Positions 24,541-35,887 of a DNA stretch of 39,578 bases are shown in pieces (position 1 is the stretch's first letter; each line of letters starts with the position of its first letter). This DNA is from Escherichia phage mEp234. The DNA lies in the sequence record NC_019715.1. The stretch is one strand, 5' to 3'. The position numbers and the translations under genes were made by a program. The notes under the pieces are model-generated. The model was not told the DNA's origin. It worked only from the letters and a program-made list of their open reading frames with translations, and did not search any database.

Positions 24541-25509
24541 TTAGTAGGTTATTTTTGTTGCGAATACTTCGCCTTTTACGATGGCTGTTATGATATTTTT
24601 AGCAACATCTTCTGATGCACCAACCTTGATAAGGTCAGCAAGTATTTTGTTATTTACTTCTTTCCGGTGAGCTTTATCCTTTGCTCTACGCTCTTCTTCG
24701 TCCTTGATTCTTTTTTCTTCTGCTATTCTGGCTTGCTCTTTTGCTTCAGCCTCGCGCCGGATTCGTTCTGCCTCCTCCTGTGCTTTTCGGCGTTCTGCTT
24801 CAATTGCCACCTGCTTTTCTCTTTCAGCTCGTTCTGCTGCCTCTTTTGCTTCGCGCTGTGCTCGTTGCTCGGCTTCAATGCGTTCACGCTCTGCACGTTC
24901 CGCTGCGGCCTTAGCTTCTGCTTCTCGCCTTGCTGCTGCTTCAATTTCGGCTTTTGCCTTTGCTTCGGCTTCAGCTCTGGCTTTCTCTTCAGCTTCTCTT
25001 TTTAAGCGTTCTTCATGCTCTCGCTTTTCCTGCTCCGCTTTGAGTCTTGCCTCTTCTCTTTGGCGGTCAAATTCGCGATCCATCAAAATCGCTATTTCAT
25101 GGTCAGACTCAATTTGCTTTGCGAGAGCTTCAGCTGCTGCCTTAGCTTCTTCTTCGGCTTTAATCCGTGCCTGCTCCTCCTCATAATCAGTAAGAGGCTG
25201 ACGCGCCTTGGCTTTCAGCTCATCAAGTCGATCACGCACTGTCTTGCGGTTGGCATCAATTAGCTTTGGAATTTCCTTCAGTTCAGCAACAAGGTCTTTT
25301 CCAAGACCATCGAGATATGTTTTCGTCTGCGCAACTTTATACGCCAGAGAAGCGATCTCCTTTCTGCCCTTTGCCGTTGTGATATCAGGCACAAAGGACA
25401 TAACTTCACGTTCAACCTTTTGGAGAATTTCTTCAATCTGGTCGGCAGACTGAAATACAGTCATTGCATTTGCTTTTTCAATAACAACTAAATCTGTTAC
25501 TTCACTCAT
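24541..25509 (-). CDS. DUF1351/Gp157-like protein with extended E/A/K/R-rich coiled-coil tract
   Basis: 322 aa from ATG 25507-25509 (strong SD GGAGGATAT); N-terminal ~110 aa globular, then ~180 aa of low-complexity EAKAAAE/RREAEAK repeats; family name is from memory. Confidence 0.5.
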   Translation of the reverse strand: MSEVTDLVVIEKANAMTVFQSADQIEEILQKVEREVMSFVPDITTAKGRKEIASLAYKVAQTKTYLDGLGKDLVAELKEIPKLIDANRKTVRDRLDELKAKARQPLTDYEEEQARIKAEEEAKAAAEALAKQIESDHEIAILMDREFDRQREEARLKAEQEKREHEERLKREAEEKARAEAEAKAKAEIEAAARREAEAKAAAERAERERIEAEQRAQREAKEAAERAEREKQVAIEAERRKAQEEAERIRREAEAKEQARIAEEKRIKDEEERRAKDKAHRKEVNNKILADLIKVGASEDVAKNIITAIVKGEVFATKITY

Positions 25510-25521
25510 ATATCCTCCGTC

Positions 25522-25548
25522 AAAAAAATTGCCCTCACACTGGAGGGC
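25522..25548 (-). terminator. stem-loop plus U-tract immediately upstream of DUF1351-like gene
   Basis: GCCCTC-cagtgt-GAGGGC then TTTTTTT on the minus strand, 13 nt before the SD. Confidence 0.45.
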
Positions 25549-25665
25549 AAAGAAGATTTCCAATAATCAGAACAAGTCGGCTCCTGTTTAGTTACGAGCG
25601 ACATTGCTCCGTGTATTCACTCGTTGGAATGAATACACAGTGCAGTGTTTATTCTGTTATTTATG

Positions 25666-25694
25666 CCAAAAATAAAGGCCGCCATCAGGCAGCC
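25666..25694 (-). terminator. stem-loop plus U-tract at 3' end of the 83-aa gene
   Basis: GGCTGCC-TGAT-GGCGGCC (one G:U) then TTTATTTTT on the minus strand; the gene's stop codon lies in the loop. Confidence 0.45.
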
Positions 25695-25936
25695 TTGTTG
25701 TAAATGTTGCAGGTATCAAGTAAGTAATTAGATGGAGCGCCATAAATTATGAATTCATCGTTTGTCGGGTCCATCTCCATCTCTTGGCCTATTGCCATTC
25801 TTGCGTCAGTGTCATCAGCGGCGAAGCATAAAACAGCCCACGCACCCATTGTTTTAAAAAGAACTGCAATTGGCTGTGGTTTTACTGAATTTGCGTTAGC
25901 GCGAAAATCACAAATCGCACTTTCATGAAATTCCAT
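25685..25936 (-). CDS. hypothetical protein (moron-like, between N and DUF1351 gene)
   Basis: 83 aa, SD GAGGTG; bracketed by its own terminator. Confidence 0.45.
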   Translation of the reverse strand: MEFHESAICDFRANANSVKPQPIAVLFKTMGAWAVLCFAADDTDARMAIGQEMEMDPTNDEFIIYGAPSNYLLDTCNIYNKAA

Positions 25937-25994
25937 ATATCACCTCAAATAAGTGGTTTGCTGCCTAATTTTATTTTCTGGCGACCAACACAAG

Positions 25995-26378
25995 TCACCT
26001 TGCTGTCAGTTGTTTTGATTTCCTGTAGCCTGCCGCGTAAAGAGCTACATTTGGAAGACATACACCAGTTTCTGGTTGCCTATGCCCAAACTCATTCGCG
26101 TACACAATGGCCGCTCTCTCCAGATTGCGTCTGTATTCTTTCTGTTGCCAGATCACGTCCTGTGCCATGAACTTAATTGGCTTAGCGTCTTCTATGCGCT
26201 CAGGCGTTTCGTGAGTACCTTTAGCCTGAATCTGCGCTCTGCTTAGAGTAGGGCGGTGTAATACTTCTGAACTTATTGCTTCTTCGCGGGCCAGTACGCC
26301 GTTAGCTAATGCCTTTGCCTTTAAACGCTCACGACGACGAGAACGTGAATTGCCTTTGAACTGAGTTCTGCGTGTCAT
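25995..26378 (-). CDS. N-like transcription antiterminator (P22 gene 24 type)
   Basis: 127 aa; arginine-rich motif near N-terminus (GNSRSRRRERLKAK); strong SD AGGAGGT; first gene downstream of PL with a boxB hairpin in its leader. Confidence 0.7.
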   Translation of the reverse strand: MTRRTQFKGNSRSRRRERLKAKALANGVLAREEAISSEVLHRPTLSRAQIQAKGTHETPERIEDAKPIKFMAQDVIWQQKEYRRNLERAAIVYANEFGHRQPETGVCLPNVALYAAGYRKSKQLTAR

Positions 26379-26543
26379 ATAGACCTCCTGATGAACTTTG
26401 GTGGTGTGGTAGGTGGGAGACCCATTTCGACCTGTTTCGGCCTACTTCAATTCGGCAATAGTCCCGCAGGCCTCGCCGCTTTACGTGCGACATATTCCCG
26501 TCCATGAACCCTTCACCACACCCCAAAGTTCACTTTGGTTATT

Positions 26544-26558
26544 GCGCTTTGTCAGCGC
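26544..26558 (-). promoter_or_regulatory. nutL boxB hairpin (P22 type)
   Basis: RNA GCGCU-GACAA-AGCGC in the PL leader; the GACAA loop is the P22-type boxB as recalled. Confidence 0.6.
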
Positions 26559-26622
26559 CGTAGATTCATCTCTGAATCGTTGTATATTCACCGCCCTGGT
26601 GAGTAGTGCGTCCTGCTGATGT

Positions 26623-26689
26623 GTTTAGTATCACCGCCAGTGGTATTTATGTCAACACCGCCAGAGATAATTTATCACCGCAGATGGTT
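26623..26689 (-). promoter_or_regulatory. PL promoter with operators OL1-OL3
   Basis: Minus strand -35 TTGACA (26650-26655), 17-bp spacer, -10 GATACT (26627-26632); 17-bp operators TATCACCGCCAGTGGTA (26629-26645), 26653-26669 and TATCACCGCAGATGGTT (26673-26689), matching lambda OL as recalled. Confidence 0.8.
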
Positions 26690-26840
26690 ATCTGTATGTT
26701 TTTTATATAGATTTATTTTTTTGCAGGGGTGTGTGGCTTGGGAGGTGATCGAGAGATCTGAATTGCGATGTTTAGTGAGTTGTATCTATTAATTTTCAAA
26801 TAAATACAATTGGTTATGTGTTTTGGGGCGAACGTGAGGC

Positions 26841-26867
26841 AAAGAAAACCCGGCGCGGTGGCCGGGT
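26841..26867 (-). terminator. Rho-independent terminator ending the cI-side accessory operon
   Basis: ACCCGGC-caccgc-GCCGGGT then TTTTCTTT on the minus strand, 7 nt after the stop of the 141-aa gene. Confidence 0.6.
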
Positions 26868-26873
26868 TGGAGA

Positions 26874-27299
26874 TTATTTTCTAGATGATGTTGGGGACCA
26901 AGGTAACGTTATAGTATCTAACACTGTGTTTTTGAACATATTTTCAAAAACTGTTTTTGTACATACATATACATAATTTTCAAAAAACCAAGCATTTTCA
27001 TTATAAAAATCCTCAGTTACTTCTTCATCGAGGTCACACTCAAATGTTAGTGTCAAGGTAGCCTCTGCCTTGAACAATACATCCTCACCATCATCAAAAT
27101 CTTTTTTATCGCGAGGGAAACCAGTTATCGATGGCTTAACTTCAATAAAGAGCCAATTTCCATCTTCATCTTTTTGAGGAACAACGTGATGCTCAGAAAA
27201 TTTTAAGCTATATTTTCCGCCTTCAGAATTATCACTGTCGTCGATAAAAAGGGAAGAACCCTCGAGATCAAATCCCTTAAAGCGAATTTTATCAAGCAT
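26874..27299 (-). CDS. acidic protein of unknown function, translationally coupled to hicB
   Basis: 141 aa from ATG 27297-27299, overlapping the hicB stop (TGATG); AT-rich coding sequence; no recognisable motif; the track ORF extends to an upstream TTG. Confidence 0.5.
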   Translation of the reverse strand: MLDKIRFKGFDLEGSSLFIDDSDNSEGGKYSLKFSEHHVVPQKDEDGNWLFIEVKPSITGFPRDKKDFDDGEDVLFKAEATLTLTFECDLDEEVTEDFYNENAWFFENYVYVCTKTVFENMFKNTVLDTITLPWSPTSSRK

Positions 27300-27772
27300 C
27301 AATGTGGCACTCCGTTGTCTACTGAAACTTCCCAATAGGTCTCTTCTGTACGTCTACGGGATGAGAAGAAAGTAACTTCTCTAACATCCCTCGGTTTTTC
27401 AAAGTGGTAGTGAACCTCTTTTTTCCCATTAACTGACTCACTGACAGCCTGTTTTACATAATCGTTTAAAGTCATATTCTTAGCTTTAGCAGCTAAATAT
27501 GCTTTTTTATGCAGGGATTCACCTATCCGGATGTTAAACGAACCACTCATTGTCTTATCTGGAGATTTTCCTATCTCTTCACAAGTGGAGAGGTAATCGT
27601 CCACGGCCTCCTCAAAGGCTGCACGGAGTTCTGCAACCGTTGCACCCTCATAAGTGACGAGATCATTTATACATTCGAGTTTTCCATGCATCACCCCATC
27701 TTCAAATGAAATGCTGGAGCTACCATAGTAACCTTTGTATTTCATCAAGTTATTCATGATCATCAATCTCAT
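27299..27772 (-). CDS. hicB: HicB-family antitoxin with C-terminal extension
   Basis: N-terminal MKYKGYYGS...DLVTYEGATVAEL...VDDYL (HicB fold), RHH-like IRIGESLHKKAYLAAKAKNMTLNDYV, then ~45 extra residues; four in-frame ATGs between 27745 and 27772. Confidence 0.7.
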   Translation of the reverse strand: MRLMIMNNLMKYKGYYGSSSISFEDGVMHGKLECINDLVTYEGATVAELRAAFEEAVDDYLSTCEEIGKSPDKTMSGSFNIRIGESLHKKAYLAAKAKNMTLNDYVKQAVSESVNGKKEVHYHFEKPRDVREVTFFSSRRRTEETYWEVSVDNGVPH

Positions 27773-28004
27773 CTAACAGCTGTTTAACTTCTTCCAAGAC
27801 GTACCTTTTGAGGGTGTTTTCAGGATGAGGCTCATGAAAAATGACCAATCTATCAACACGTTGGTTGTAAAATTTACGGCCAGAACCTCGTTTAGCATTC
27901 AAAAGCTTGAAGCCATACTGGTTCATGAGAGTAACGAACTCATCCCAAGTAAAATTTTTGGGTAAGCCGTCTAACTTTGACTTTAGCTTTTCCTTTCTTC
28001 CCAC
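27750..28004 (-). CDS. hicA: HicA/YcfA-family toxin-like protein
   Basis: 84 aa (GTG start); ...FKLLNAKRGSGRKFYNQRVDRLVIFHEPHPENTLKRYVLEEVKQL matches the HicA fold pattern as recalled; directly upstream of hicB. Confidence 0.65.
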   Translation of the reverse strand: MGRKEKLKSKLDGLPKNFTWDEFVTLMNQYGFKLLNAKRGSGRKFYNQRVDRLVIFHEPHPENTLKRYVLEEVKQLLDEIDDHE

Positions 28005-28164
28005 GAAGGATACATCCTCTGTTAAAGGTAGTGCAACTGAAATCTAGTTGCAAGCTATGCTATCTATAGACAAAATGTTTCATTGTTATATCAGAAGATA
28101 CCCGATCTGTTTCACCTTCAACTACTATAATTTGTTATAAGCTATCAACCGGTGGAACTGCGAA

Positions 28165-28263
28165 TTAGCCGCTGGGTGTTGCGTATCCATCGATGATAAA
28201 CCATGCCATAAACCCCATAGCTACGATGAACACCAAGATCGGAAACACTATACCAATTCTCAT
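28165..28263 (-). CDS. 32-aa hydrophobic peptide ORF (candidate small membrane protein)
   Basis: MRIGIVFPILVFIVAMGFMAWFIIDGYATPSG, ATG 28261-28263 with GGGAT upstream; lies in the 363-bp AT-rich spacer between cI and hicA; translated by hand. Confidence 0.3.
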   Translation of the reverse strand: MRIGIVFPILVFIVAMGFMAWFIIDGYATPSG

Positions 28264-28367
28264 GATTTTATCCCTGTCTACCCATGCTTCCTGGGCACCA
28301 GCGGCTCGTTACTCGGCATCACCCTTAATCCGCCGCCCCATGTGTTTGTTGTGATCCGTTGCTGGCC

Positions 28368-29084
<717 letters not shown>

Positions 29085-29091
29085 TTAAATC

Positions 29092-29157
29092 TATCACCGC
29101 AAGGGATAAATATCTAACACCGTGCGTGTTGACTATTTTACCTCTAGCGGTGATAAT
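29092..29157. promoter_or_regulatory. OR3-OR2-OR1 with PRM (leftward) and PR (rightward)
   Basis: OR3 TATCACCGCAAGGGATA (29092-29108), OR2 TAACACCGTGCGTGTTG (29115-29131), OR1 TACCTCTAGCGGTGATA (29139-29155); PR -35 TTGACT 29129-29134 and -10 GATAAT 29152-29157. Confidence 0.85.
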
Positions 29158-29172
29158 GGTTGCATGTACTAA

Positions 29173-29382
<210 letters not shown>

Positions 29383-29389
29383 GTAACAC

Positions 29390-29435
29390 CGCTCTTTTCA
29401 CAATGGACATTCGTCCTACGTCGCTGACAAAGCGA
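29390..29435 (+). promoter_or_regulatory. nutR (boxA plus boxB)
   Basis: boxA-like CGCTCTTTTCA (29390-29400) and boxB hairpin TCGCT-GACAA-AGCGA (29421-29435) just downstream of cro; the loop matches nutL. Confidence 0.6.
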
Positions 29436-29520
29436 GTCCCAATATATCTGACCAACTAAGGCCATATGCGTTTCCACGCATACCTTTCAACTAACTATTC
29501 ACTATTGGAAATCTTAAGAA

Positions 29521-29817
29521 ATGGAAAGAACAAGTTACAGCAAACTATCACAGCGTGACGTTGATCGCGCAGAAACAGATTTACTCATCAACCTGTCAAC
29601 GCTTACCCAGCGCGGTCTGGCAAAGATGATTGGCTGTCATGAATCGAAGATAAGCAGAACGGACTGGAGATTTATTGCTTCGGTCTTGTGTGCTTTTGGA
29701 ATGGCATCAGACATCAGTCCGATTAGCAGGGCTTTTAAGTATGCGCTTGATGAAATCACAAAGAAAAAATCCCCGGCCGCCACCGAGGATTTTAAGCAAA
29801 TTGATATGCAATTCTGA
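29521..29817 (+). CDS. cII: CII-like transcriptional activator
   Basis: 98 aa; HTH region and C-terminus ...KKKSPAATEDFKQIDMQF parallel lambda CII (...KKRPAATERSEQIQMEF) as recalled. Confidence 0.7.
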   Translation: MERTSYSKLSQRDVDRAETDLLINLSTLTQRGLAKMIGCHESKISRTDWRFIASVLCAFGMASDISPISRAFKYALDEITKKKSPAATEDFKQIDMQF

Positions 29818-29849
29818 GGGAATTACTGGATCAATCCACAGGAGTAATT

Positions 29850-30011
29850 ATGACAAAACGTCGTAAGAAATACCAGGAAAAAGAAGAGATTCGACACCCT
29901 GATTCACCTGAGGGATTAGTGGTAGCCGCAGCAAATAACAGGGCGTTCGCAGAGCGCCTTGTTGGTGTTTACAGACTAGCCAAAGCAGGAGTGAAGCATG
30001 GGCGTCGTTAA
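29850..30011 (+). CDS. small basic protein ORF between cII and the replication gene
   Basis: 53 aa (MTKRRKKYQEKEEIRHPDSPEG...), SD GGAG 6 nt upstream; overlaps the start of the next gene by 14 nt; translated by hand. Confidence 0.3.
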   Translation: MTKRRKKYQEKEEIRHPDSPEGLVVAAANNRAFAERLVGVYRLAKAGVKHGRR

Positions 30012-30888
30012 GTTAGCTGATTACAGGCATAACCCTGTACAACATCAGGAGGCATCCAGTATGGGGTATGTCTCTATACACCGCCAGTTTATGGACAGCA
30101 GGCTCTATAAGGACTCTCAGGCAGTACATCTTTGGCTTCACTTAATCCTCAAGGCTAATCACGAATCTACTGTCGTCAATACGGATATCGGTCCGATAAC
30201 TGTTGATCGCGGTCAGATGATAACTGGACGCCCGTCGCTGGTCAGAGAAACATTCATCCCCGACAACAAAGTTCGGAGCTTATTACGGACTTTTGAGTCG
30301 AAAGGGATGCTTAATATTTGCTCGATGGGGAAGAAATTTAGCCTGTTTACAATCGTTAAATATGACGATTTTCAGGCAAAAAATTGTCCAACGGTTGTCC
30401 AACGGTTGTCCAACGCAAACACCAGTAATGGCGCGGATCTCAGCGGAGATTGTCCAACGGTTGTCCAACGGTTGTCCATAAACAATAATATAAATAATAT
30501 CTCTAATACTGACGTATTAGAGAGTGCCACAGCAGACAAAAAGTCTGACAAGAAAAAACCTTCCGTTAGCTGTCAGGATGTTGTCGATGCTTACCACGAA
30601 ATCCTTCCTGAAGCGCCAAGAATCCGCGCACTGAATGACAAGCGTAAAAACCAGATCCGAACGTTCTGGCGCAAAGCCGGAGTGATAACCCGTCAGCTTG
30701 ACGGGCATGGGTTCACGATGCAGGACTGGAGAAATTATTTGAGCTACGTAGGCGAAAATTGCCGATGGATGTTCGAAGAGCGCCCAAACCATCAACGCGG
30801 AACCGTCTGGCACAAAAAGGGATTTGATTTCCTGCTTAACGATAATACCTACCTGAAAGTTCGTGAGGGTGAACACGATGACCGATAA
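29998..30888 (+). CDS. replication initiator (O-type) containing ori iterons
   Basis: 296 aa, SD GGAG; the coding sequence carries six 11-bp iterons, giving the repeated peptide CPTVVQRLS; precedes the helicase gene. Confidence 0.7.
   Translation: MGVVKLADYRHNPVQHQEASSMGYVSIHRQFMDSRLYKDSQAVHLWLHLILKANHESTVVNTDIGPITVDRGQMITGRPSLVRETFIPDNKVRSLLRTFESKGMLNICSMGKKFSLFTIVKYDDFQAKNCPTVVQRLSNANTSNGADLSGDCPTVVQRLSINNNINNISNTDVLESATADKKSDKKKPSVSCQDVVDAYHEILPEAPRIRALNDKRKNQIRTFWRKAGVITRQLDGHGFTMQDWRNYLSYVGENCRWMFEERPNHQRGTVWHKKGFDFLLNDNTYLKVREGEHDDR
30384..30480 (+). repeat. origin iterons (6 x TTGTCCAACGG in two clusters)
   Basis: Direct repeats at 30384-30394, 30395-30405, 30406-30416 and 30450-30460, 30461-30471, 30472-30480, with a 33-bp spacer. 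Confidence 0.8.
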
Positions 30889-35746: not shown

Positions 35747-35887
35747 GTTTTAAGCACGGCCTTTCTGAAAGCACATCAAACCAAATACCAGACAGACAAA
35801 AATAATCAACTTATCCGCTGTGGCTACGGTGCGGTGTGCTTTGCATAAAAGAAAACCAGCGCAATGGCTGGCTTCGTGAAAGCGGGT

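Follow-up and report, generated by a model that had tools for sequence, protein, structure and literature searches.

A HicA homologue without the β2 histidine in Escherichia phage mEp234, and the probable relocation of its catalytic residue to β3 within a toxin-antitoxin-chaperone module

Introduction

HicA toxins have an active site that is conventionally defined by a single histidine on strand β2, which is also the residue mutated for non-toxic variants. Here we describe hicA of Escherichia phage mEp234 (sequence record NC_019715.1; the window, i.e., the whole stretch of DNA that was analysed, is 39,578 nt long), an open reading frame (ORF) at 27750-28004 on the minus strand whose 84-aa translation, MGRKEKLKSKLDGLPKNFTWDEFVTLMNQYGFKLLNAKRGSGRKFYNQRVDRLVIFHEPHPENTLKRYVLEEVKQLLDEIDDHE, is that of a HicA homologue with glycine where this histidine is expected. 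Its relatives form a very large clade in which a near-invariant histidine stands at the end of strand β3, with the two positions occupied in a complementary manner. Taking the evidence as a whole, we consider it moderately probable that mEp234 HicA is an active toxin whose catalytic histidine has been relocated, and that it belongs to a toxin-antitoxin-chaperone (TAC) module made up of HicA, HicB and a SecB-like protein.

Results

The mEp234 hicA product is a HicA-fold homologue

The hicA ORF is a real gene that encodes a HicA-fold homologue. Its product matched the Pfam family PF07927 (HicA_toxin) over residues 20-73 with 32.1 bits against a gathering cut-off of 27 (E value 1.2e-7) and PHROG 8887, annotated as 'toxin', from end to end (E 2.7e-34), and an identical protein, WP_016063366.1, is called a HicA family toxin from the same GTG start by the Prokaryotic Genome Annotation Pipeline (PGAP). 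An AlphaFold2 (AF2) model built from a 125-sequence alignment, with a mean predicted local distance difference test (pLDDT) score of 93, presents a core like that of double-stranded RNA-binding domains (α-β-β-β-α) plus an additional N-terminal helix, the elements assigned by DSSP being α0 (residues 3-12), α1 (20-29), β1 (32-35), β2 (42-47), β3 (52-57) and α2 (67-83). All four top Foldseek matches of this model in the Protein Data Bank (PDB) were HicA toxins, from Burkholderia pseudomallei (6g26), Streptococcus pneumoniae (5yrz) and Yersinia pestis (4p78), with template modelling (TM) scores normalised to the target of 0.62-0.74 and root-mean-square deviations of 2.1-3.2 Å. Searches of PDB sequences with the single HicA sequence or with a narrow 17-sequence profile gave no HicA match, and a 125-sequence clade profile reached PDB HicA chains weakly (hmmsearch E 0.04).

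The N-terminal extension that precedes this core is conserved in an alignment of the clade made with MAFFT (175 sequences, namely the query and 174 retrieved ones; 174 of the 175 cover both of the positions discussed below), K6 being present in 172 and P15 in 157 of the 175 sequences, and the helix at residues 3-12 was modelled with pLDDT >90. A GAGG motif sits 11 nt upstream of the GTG, and the next methionine, M27, lies inside helix α1. Because the extension is conserved and modelled as a helix, and because a start at M27 would delete α1, the GTG start is confirmed; an internal start at M27 was considered and rejected on these grounds.

Glycine occupies the position of the canonical catalytic histidine

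Published work puts the essential HicA histidine where β2 begins, immediately following a conserved Gly-Ser, the residues of this catalytic turn being H23 in E. coli HicA, G22/H24 in B. pseudomallei HicA, H28 in Y. pestis HicA3, H36 in S. pneumoniae HicA and G22/H24 in gonococcal HicA (PMC11594946, PMC3969222, PMC6159526, PMC12297915). Reported HicAs are described as sharing one conserved histidine (PMC6159526, PMC7180214, PMC11594946), and Gly22 is likewise essential in the B. pseudomallei and gonococcal toxins (PMC3969222, PMC12297915). In alignments through the clade profile, G40-S41-G42 of mEp234 HicA coincides with G22-S23-H24 of the toxin from B. pseudomallei (hhalign, E 6e-6 and 85% probability; also hmmsearch) and with the GSH36 of S. 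pneumoniae HicA (hmmsearch), and P59-H60-P61 falls on the canonical PHP of the B. pseudomallei protein. Because G42 aligns onto the catalytic histidine, mEp234 HicA is without a histidine at the canonical catalytic position. An hhalign alignment to E. coli HicA was disregarded (probability 3.7%, with the GS motif mis-registered), the B. pseudomallei alignment being preferred.

The original prediction for this ORF had read from it a GTG start, an 18-aa N-terminal extension and the motifs AKRGSGRKF and FHEPHP, all of which are present, the extension being modelled as a helix and conserved across the clade. The E. coli motif that it gave, ANGSNHLKL, agrees with PDB chain 6hpb_A, as does PRHP, and its claim that the canonical catalytic histidine is missing while a PHP-like element is retained holds throughout the profile alignments, none of which places a histidine at the catalytic position.

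Most members of a very large clade lack the β2 histidine

At a cut-off of E ≤1e-3, exhaustive searching with a profile yielded 820 clusters defined at 50% identity; of these, 196 also passed E ≤1e-10. Almost all were about 80-90 aa in length and aligned from residue 1. At E ≤1e-5, a word-indexed search returned no fewer than 7,647 clusters defined at 90% identity. PF07927 was carried by all of the best 120 matches listed, many of which were named HicA by their sources. In genomes of Bacteroidota and Desulfobacterota, distant members overlap in the classic hicA-hicB manner with a partner gene for a PF05534 HicB of 109-122 aa. Across the 175 aligned sequences, the residue that follows Gly-Ser is most often arginine (86 sequences), then glycine (38), alanine (16), histidine (16) or serine (9). 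Near-invariant positions besides K6 are E22 (167), S41 (173), F45 (170), H57 (160), P59 (172), H60 (171) and P61 (164), and G40 is kept in 161 sequences. Substitution of the β2 histidine is thus the norm in a very large and routinely annotated HicA clade, not an oddity. The original prediction of a divergent or catalytically altered HicA-fold protein was correct insofar as this is a HicA homologue without the β2 histidine, but the suggestion that the protein is peculiar or possibly crippled finds no support, since the members of its clade number at least 7,647 clusters, are paired with HicB and hold H57 near-invariant.

Histidine is found at position 42 or position 57

Among the 174 sequences in which neither position is missing, the histidines showed a complementary pattern, with H57 only in 158, H42 only in 14, both in 2 and neither in none (Fisher p 8e-19). 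A second search yielded a further 112 sequences, every one of which had H57 and none H42. Over all columns and residues, the association between His42 and a residue other than histidine at 57 reached p 2e-21, with the next best at 1e-6. When columns 42 and 57 were masked, the nearest neighbour was an H57-type sequence for 14 of the 16 H42-type sequences, and this scatter of the H42 type among H57-type neighbours makes it unlikely that the pattern goes back to a single inherited event. We found no earlier description in the literature of a large HicA clade without the β2 histidine, nor of the 42/57 complementarity.

The modelled geometry brings these positions together. Strands 42-47 and 52-57, joined by a 4-residue turn, form a hairpin whose register is i+j=99. 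The strongest pair by mutual information with average product correction in the whole clade alignment (K44-I55) fits this register; the pair G42-H57 ranked 11th of 3,240. Positions 42 and 57 are probably cross-strand neighbours. Directly paired residues of an antiparallel hairpin have their side chains on the same face, so the imidazole of His57 would lie beside the site that a His42 imidazole would take.

The conservation of the Gly-Ser turn, the strict retention of one histidine and the continued pairing of distant members with hicB lead us to infer that the catalytic histidine has moved from β2 to β3 and that mEp234 HicA is still an active, RNA-cleaving toxin. Judged from these sequence patterns, 'catalytically altered' is most likely better worded as 'catalytic histidine relocated'.

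hicA heads a cassette with hicB and a gene for a predicted SecB-like chaperone

The genes hicA, hicB and hicC are co-oriented, in that order, and are followed by a terminator (Table 1). The 152-aa form of HicB overlaps the end of hicA by 8 nt and is the length at which homologous hicB loci are called; the form chosen by PGAP (148 aa, from the ATG at 27745) starts 4 nt after hicA. HicB matched Pfam PF05534 (E 1.5e-18) and PHROG 9151, a HicB-like antitoxin family (E 5e-55), the latter match beginning at residue 6 of the 157-aa ORF. As far as about residue 110 it shares 44-51% identity with HicBs from two-gene systems. The C-terminal tail of 38 residues, GKKEVHYHFEKPRDVREVTFFSSRRRTEETYWEVSVDNGVPH, extends past the part that can be aligned to HicBs of two-gene hicAB loci, which are 109-122 aa long, and is aromatic-rich, a richness that has been described for chaperone addiction domains (ChADs; bioRxiv 10.1101/2024.02.24.581848; PMC5105189).

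The product of hicC had no match in Pfam (SecB included), NCBIfam or PDB sequences, and its SecB-like identity came from the fold search alone. Its AF2 model (pLDDT 79) best matched Rv1957, the SecB-like TAC chaperone of Mycobacterium tuberculosis solved with a ChAD peptide (5mtw, E 2.4e-5, TM 0.67-0.74), followed by SecB of E. coli and Haemophilus influenzae (1qyn, 1ozb and 1fx3), and the third gene product is accordingly modelled as SecB-like. The family is narrow, comprising 12 clusters, and all of the source-named ones are from Enterobacterales. TAC chaperones as divergent as this one probably often stand in annotations as hypothetical proteins. In a 2025 GenBank record of mEp234, PV340539.1, with which bases 1-21099 of the window are 100% identical, the toxin, antitoxin and chaperone genes already bear the names HicA, HicB and HicC. 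The hicA-hicB-hicC cassette is a HicAB-SecB TAC module, in which HicB would depend on the chaperone. The original prediction had been made without this context, in which hicA is the toxin gene of a three-gene toxin-antitoxin-chaperone cassette.

The module occupies the rexAB slot of a lambda-type immunity region

hicABC is carried as a moron between the lambda-type cI and the immunity terminator, the slot that holds rexAB in lambda. The terminator and its flank (26800-26868) share 94% identity with the 3' end of the lambda gene rexB (lambda 35757-35826), and this rexB-like junction DNA indicates a clean replacement of rexAB by hicABC between conserved junctions. The same slot in HK97 holds the unrelated genes gp48 and gp49. 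The mEp234 CI and Cro proteins presumably read like those of lambda, which would give this HK97-like phage (Hendrixvirinae) lambda immunity.

HK106 and a prophage of E. coli PE15 each match the mEp234 hic region at 100% identity. The order cI-(yoaK)-hicA-hicB-ORF3 recurs in Klebsiella and Pantoea prophages beside CI-type repressors; in E. coli TC24 the cassette adjoins unrelated repressors, and in all it was present in 6 of 5,426 complete E. coli genomes. The small yoaK-like ORF accompanies the cassette in E. coli TC24 and in the Pantoea prophages and is absent from the Klebsiella loci. A literature search found no paper on the hic genes of HK106, mEp234 or mEp506.

Upstream of hicA, about 30-50 nt from its start, the minus strand holds a perfect 7-bp inverted repeat, TGCAACT-N7-AGTTGCA (28032-28052), which could be an operator for ribbon-helix-helix HicB or a hairpin in the 5' untranslated region. 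Rfam gave no match in 25500-30500.

Table 1. Positions of the hic module, its key codons and neighbouring features in the window, and of one locus used for comparison.
Feature	Position	Strand	Basis or remark
Intrinsic terminator, 6 nt after the hicC stop	26847..26868	-	8-bp stem with 6 GC pairs, then a T-run
hicC, gene for a 141-aa SecB-like chaperone (predicted)	26874..27299	-	Overlaps the hicB stop by 1 nt; AF2 fold match
hicB antitoxin, 152 aa from the ATG at 27757	27299..27757	-	PF05534, PHROG 9151
HicB C-terminal tail of 38 residues, candidate ChAD	27302..27415	-	Absent from two-gene HicBs
hicA toxin ORF, 84 aa	27750..28004	-	GTG start; Pfam PF07927, AF2 model, Foldseek HicA matches
Codons H57-E58-P59-H60; H57, proposed relocated histidine at the end of β3 across from G42; H60, family-wide PHP histidine	27825..27836	-	Clade conservation, DSSP, covariation
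Codons G40-S41-G42, β1-β2 turn; G42 at the canonical catalytic histidine position (B. pseudomallei H24, S. pneumoniae H36)	27879..27887	-	Alignments
YoaK-family small membrane protein ORF, 32 aa	28165..28263	-	Between cI and hicA; NCBIfam NF033821, E 4.9e-15
Lambda-type CI repressor gene (237 aa, minus strand) and Cro-type gene (66 aa, plus strand), divergent	28368-29382		GenBank 'repressor protein cI', PGAP 'LexA family protein'
TDE0482/TDE0481 HicAB pair used by Bordes et al. 2016	Metagenome contig ODVE01000121.1, 872-1441		Recovered by metagenome scan

Discussion

A relocated catalytic histidine and the readings that compete with it

Our favoured reading combines an active toxin with a chaperone-dependent antitoxin. 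H57 would supply the imidazole that His24 or His36 gives in characterised HicAs, making mEp234 HicA an RNA-cleaving toxin that HicB would neutralise by covering the face that carries H57. The aromatic-rich C-terminal tail would make HicB dependent on the SecB-like chaperone, such that titration of the chaperone, e.g., by proteins of an infecting phage, could free HicA and arrest translation, resulting in abortive infection or exclusion; such a role in defence is a conjecture on our part. A wider form of this reading, which we regard as evenly balanced between true and false, would have the single catalytic histidine moved from β2 to a cross-strand position on β3 throughout the clade (thousands of clusters from Bacteroidota, Proteobacteria, Desulfobacterota and phages), with rare two-histidine intermediates, and would have HicA of mEp234 act as the warhead of an abortive-infection module that is gated by the chaperone and takes the place of rexAB.

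Several points weigh against this interpretation, some on the side of catalysis and others on that of defence. The adjacency of positions 42 and 57 is derived from strand register and covariation, not from coordinates, and the complementarity statistics ignore kinship, with no correction for phylogeny. We know of no H57-type member of the clade that has been assayed. S. pneumoniae HicA seems to carry both histidines, H36 and H51 (hmmsearch alignment with the clade profile), yet H36A abolishes its activity (PMC6159526), so a β3 histidine is not sufficient in that context. The Treponema denticola toxin TDE0482 has an N-terminal extension within its 72 aa but a canonical KGSHRHY motif and no HxPHP; it therefore lends no experimental support to toxins of the H57 type, and it indicates that 'long' HicAs exist in both histidine configurations. 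Primers for the two 'long' HicAs handled by Bordes et al. 2016, Methylomonas Metme_2813 and T. denticola TDE0482, had no match in genome contigs; Metme_2813 is reported to be toxic in E. coli (PMC5105189). As to defence, PADLOC gave no match for any of the four proteins, and a Pseudomonas putida prophage HicAB gave no phage defence (PMC12894663). A simple scan found no sigma-70 consensus promoter directly upstream of hicA, for which reason the gene may be transcribed from the cI promoters, in the manner of rexAB.

Among the alternatives, an active toxin might use the PHP histidine H60, or an H57/H60 pair, for catalysis, with H57 serving mainly as a structural residue or a contact for HicB. H60 is the most conserved histidine of the clade, and the PHP histidine is described as close in space to the catalytic histidine in the B. 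pseudomallei and gonococcal toxins (PMC3969222, PMC12297915). We nevertheless consider this alternative unlikely, because H60 is present in both types (15 of the 16 H42-type sequences have it) and cannot explain why a second histidine is constantly found at 42 or 57, and because the equivalent substitution, H40A, leaves gonococcal HicA fully toxic (PMC12297915). As the sole replacement histidine H60 was rejected, being there whatever the state of His42 and His57.

A second alternative would make mEp234 HicA a HicA-fold protein that binds RNA or the ribosome without cleaving, and that is toxic through binding alone or has a regulatory role. The absence here of the β2 histidine, the only residue essential for RNase activity in every characterised HicA (PMC11594946, PMC6159526), is what such a protein would lead one to expect, and the failure of the histidine at the β3 position to rescue H36A in S. 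pneumoniae (PMC6159526) points the same way. However, a dead enzyme is not expected to hold H57, P59, H60 and S41 near-invariant over thousands of clusters, nor would it show a strict rule of histidine at 42 or 57 and never neither, nor stay coupled to HicB everywhere and to a chaperone in mEp234, which is why we find this alternative quite improbable. That the ORF or its start has been mis-called, the protein being shorter or the region non-coding and the divergence an artefact, could draw on the GTG codon and the rather long Shine-Dalgarno spacing of 11 nt but is scarcely credible given conservation over the full length from residue 1 in hundreds of clusters, the confidently modelled N-terminal helix with M27 within α1, and the use of the same ORF by PGAP, PHROGs and GenBank.

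Returning to the relocation of the histidine from β2 to β3, its consequences would reach beyond this phage. The GSH motif should be used with caution for inferring the activity or inactivity of a HicA, and the 42/57 rule may bear on the catalytic mechanism of these toxins. If relocation is true, HicA catalysis needs one imidazole on a surface patch and not a fixed residue, the notion of a 'conserved catalytic histidine' would fail for much of the HicA family, and the clade might differ in RNA specificity. A HicA-based TAC in the rexAB slot of a tractable lambdoid phage also offers a convenient model for chaperone-gated toxin activation.

Comparison with known systems

Compared with the characterised HicAs (E. 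coli 6HPB, B. pseudomallei 4C26/6G26, Y. pestis HicA3 4P78 and S. pneumoniae 5YRZ), mEp234 HicA is alike in its fold and small, basic character, in its Gly-Ser turn between β1 and β2 and its P-H-P in the loop between β3 and α2, and in the overlapping arrangement of hicA followed by hicB. It differs from them in having Gly42 after the Gly-Ser (the clade mostly has arginine), in the near-invariant histidine that its clade carries three residues before the PHP histidine (H-x-P-H-P), and in its conserved N-terminal helical extension of about 18 residues; relative to B. pseudomallei HicA, its β3 is also two residues longer before the PHP by alignment. Similarity in sequence between the clade and the solved HicAs is marginal, as the hmmsearch and hhalign values given above reflect.

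HicAB-SecB TAC modules are known and functional, as exemplified by Mmet-TAC of Methylomonas methanica MC09, with ChAD tails that are transferable (Bordes et al. 2016, PMC5105189), and because of this and of the GenBank labels the identity of the mEp234 system as such is not new. Like Mmet-TAC and the HigB1-HigA1-Rv1957 system of M. tuberculosis, the mEp234 module has three overlapping genes that run in one direction, the toxin gene first, then the antitoxin gene and then that of the SecB-like chaperone, its antitoxin bears a C-terminal extension that two-gene homologues lack, and its modelled chaperone fits Rv1957 (5MTW) best. Unlike in those systems, the chaperone is too divergent for a match to Pfam SecB or PDB sequences and belongs to the small Enterobacterales family described above, and the module sits in the immunity region of a lambdoid phage.

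TAC systems can protect against phage if the chaperone is contested between the ChAD and a protein of the phage (bioRxiv 10.1101/2024.02.24.581848). The mEp234 module has a toxin of the HicA family, not HigB or CmdT, but it resembles the antiphage systems HigBAC and CmdTAC of E. coli (Mets et al., bioRxiv 10.1101/2024.02.24.581848) in its naming, in joining a toxin-antitoxin 'warhead' to a SecB-like 'C' chaperone, which would bind an aromatic ChAD pattern, and in its carriage on E. coli mobile elements. With lambda rexAB, a sensor and membrane-channel exclusion system, hicABC has no sequence or mechanistic relationship; what the two share is their place, which follows a lambda-type cI and precedes the terminator, and, presumably, expression in the lysogen.

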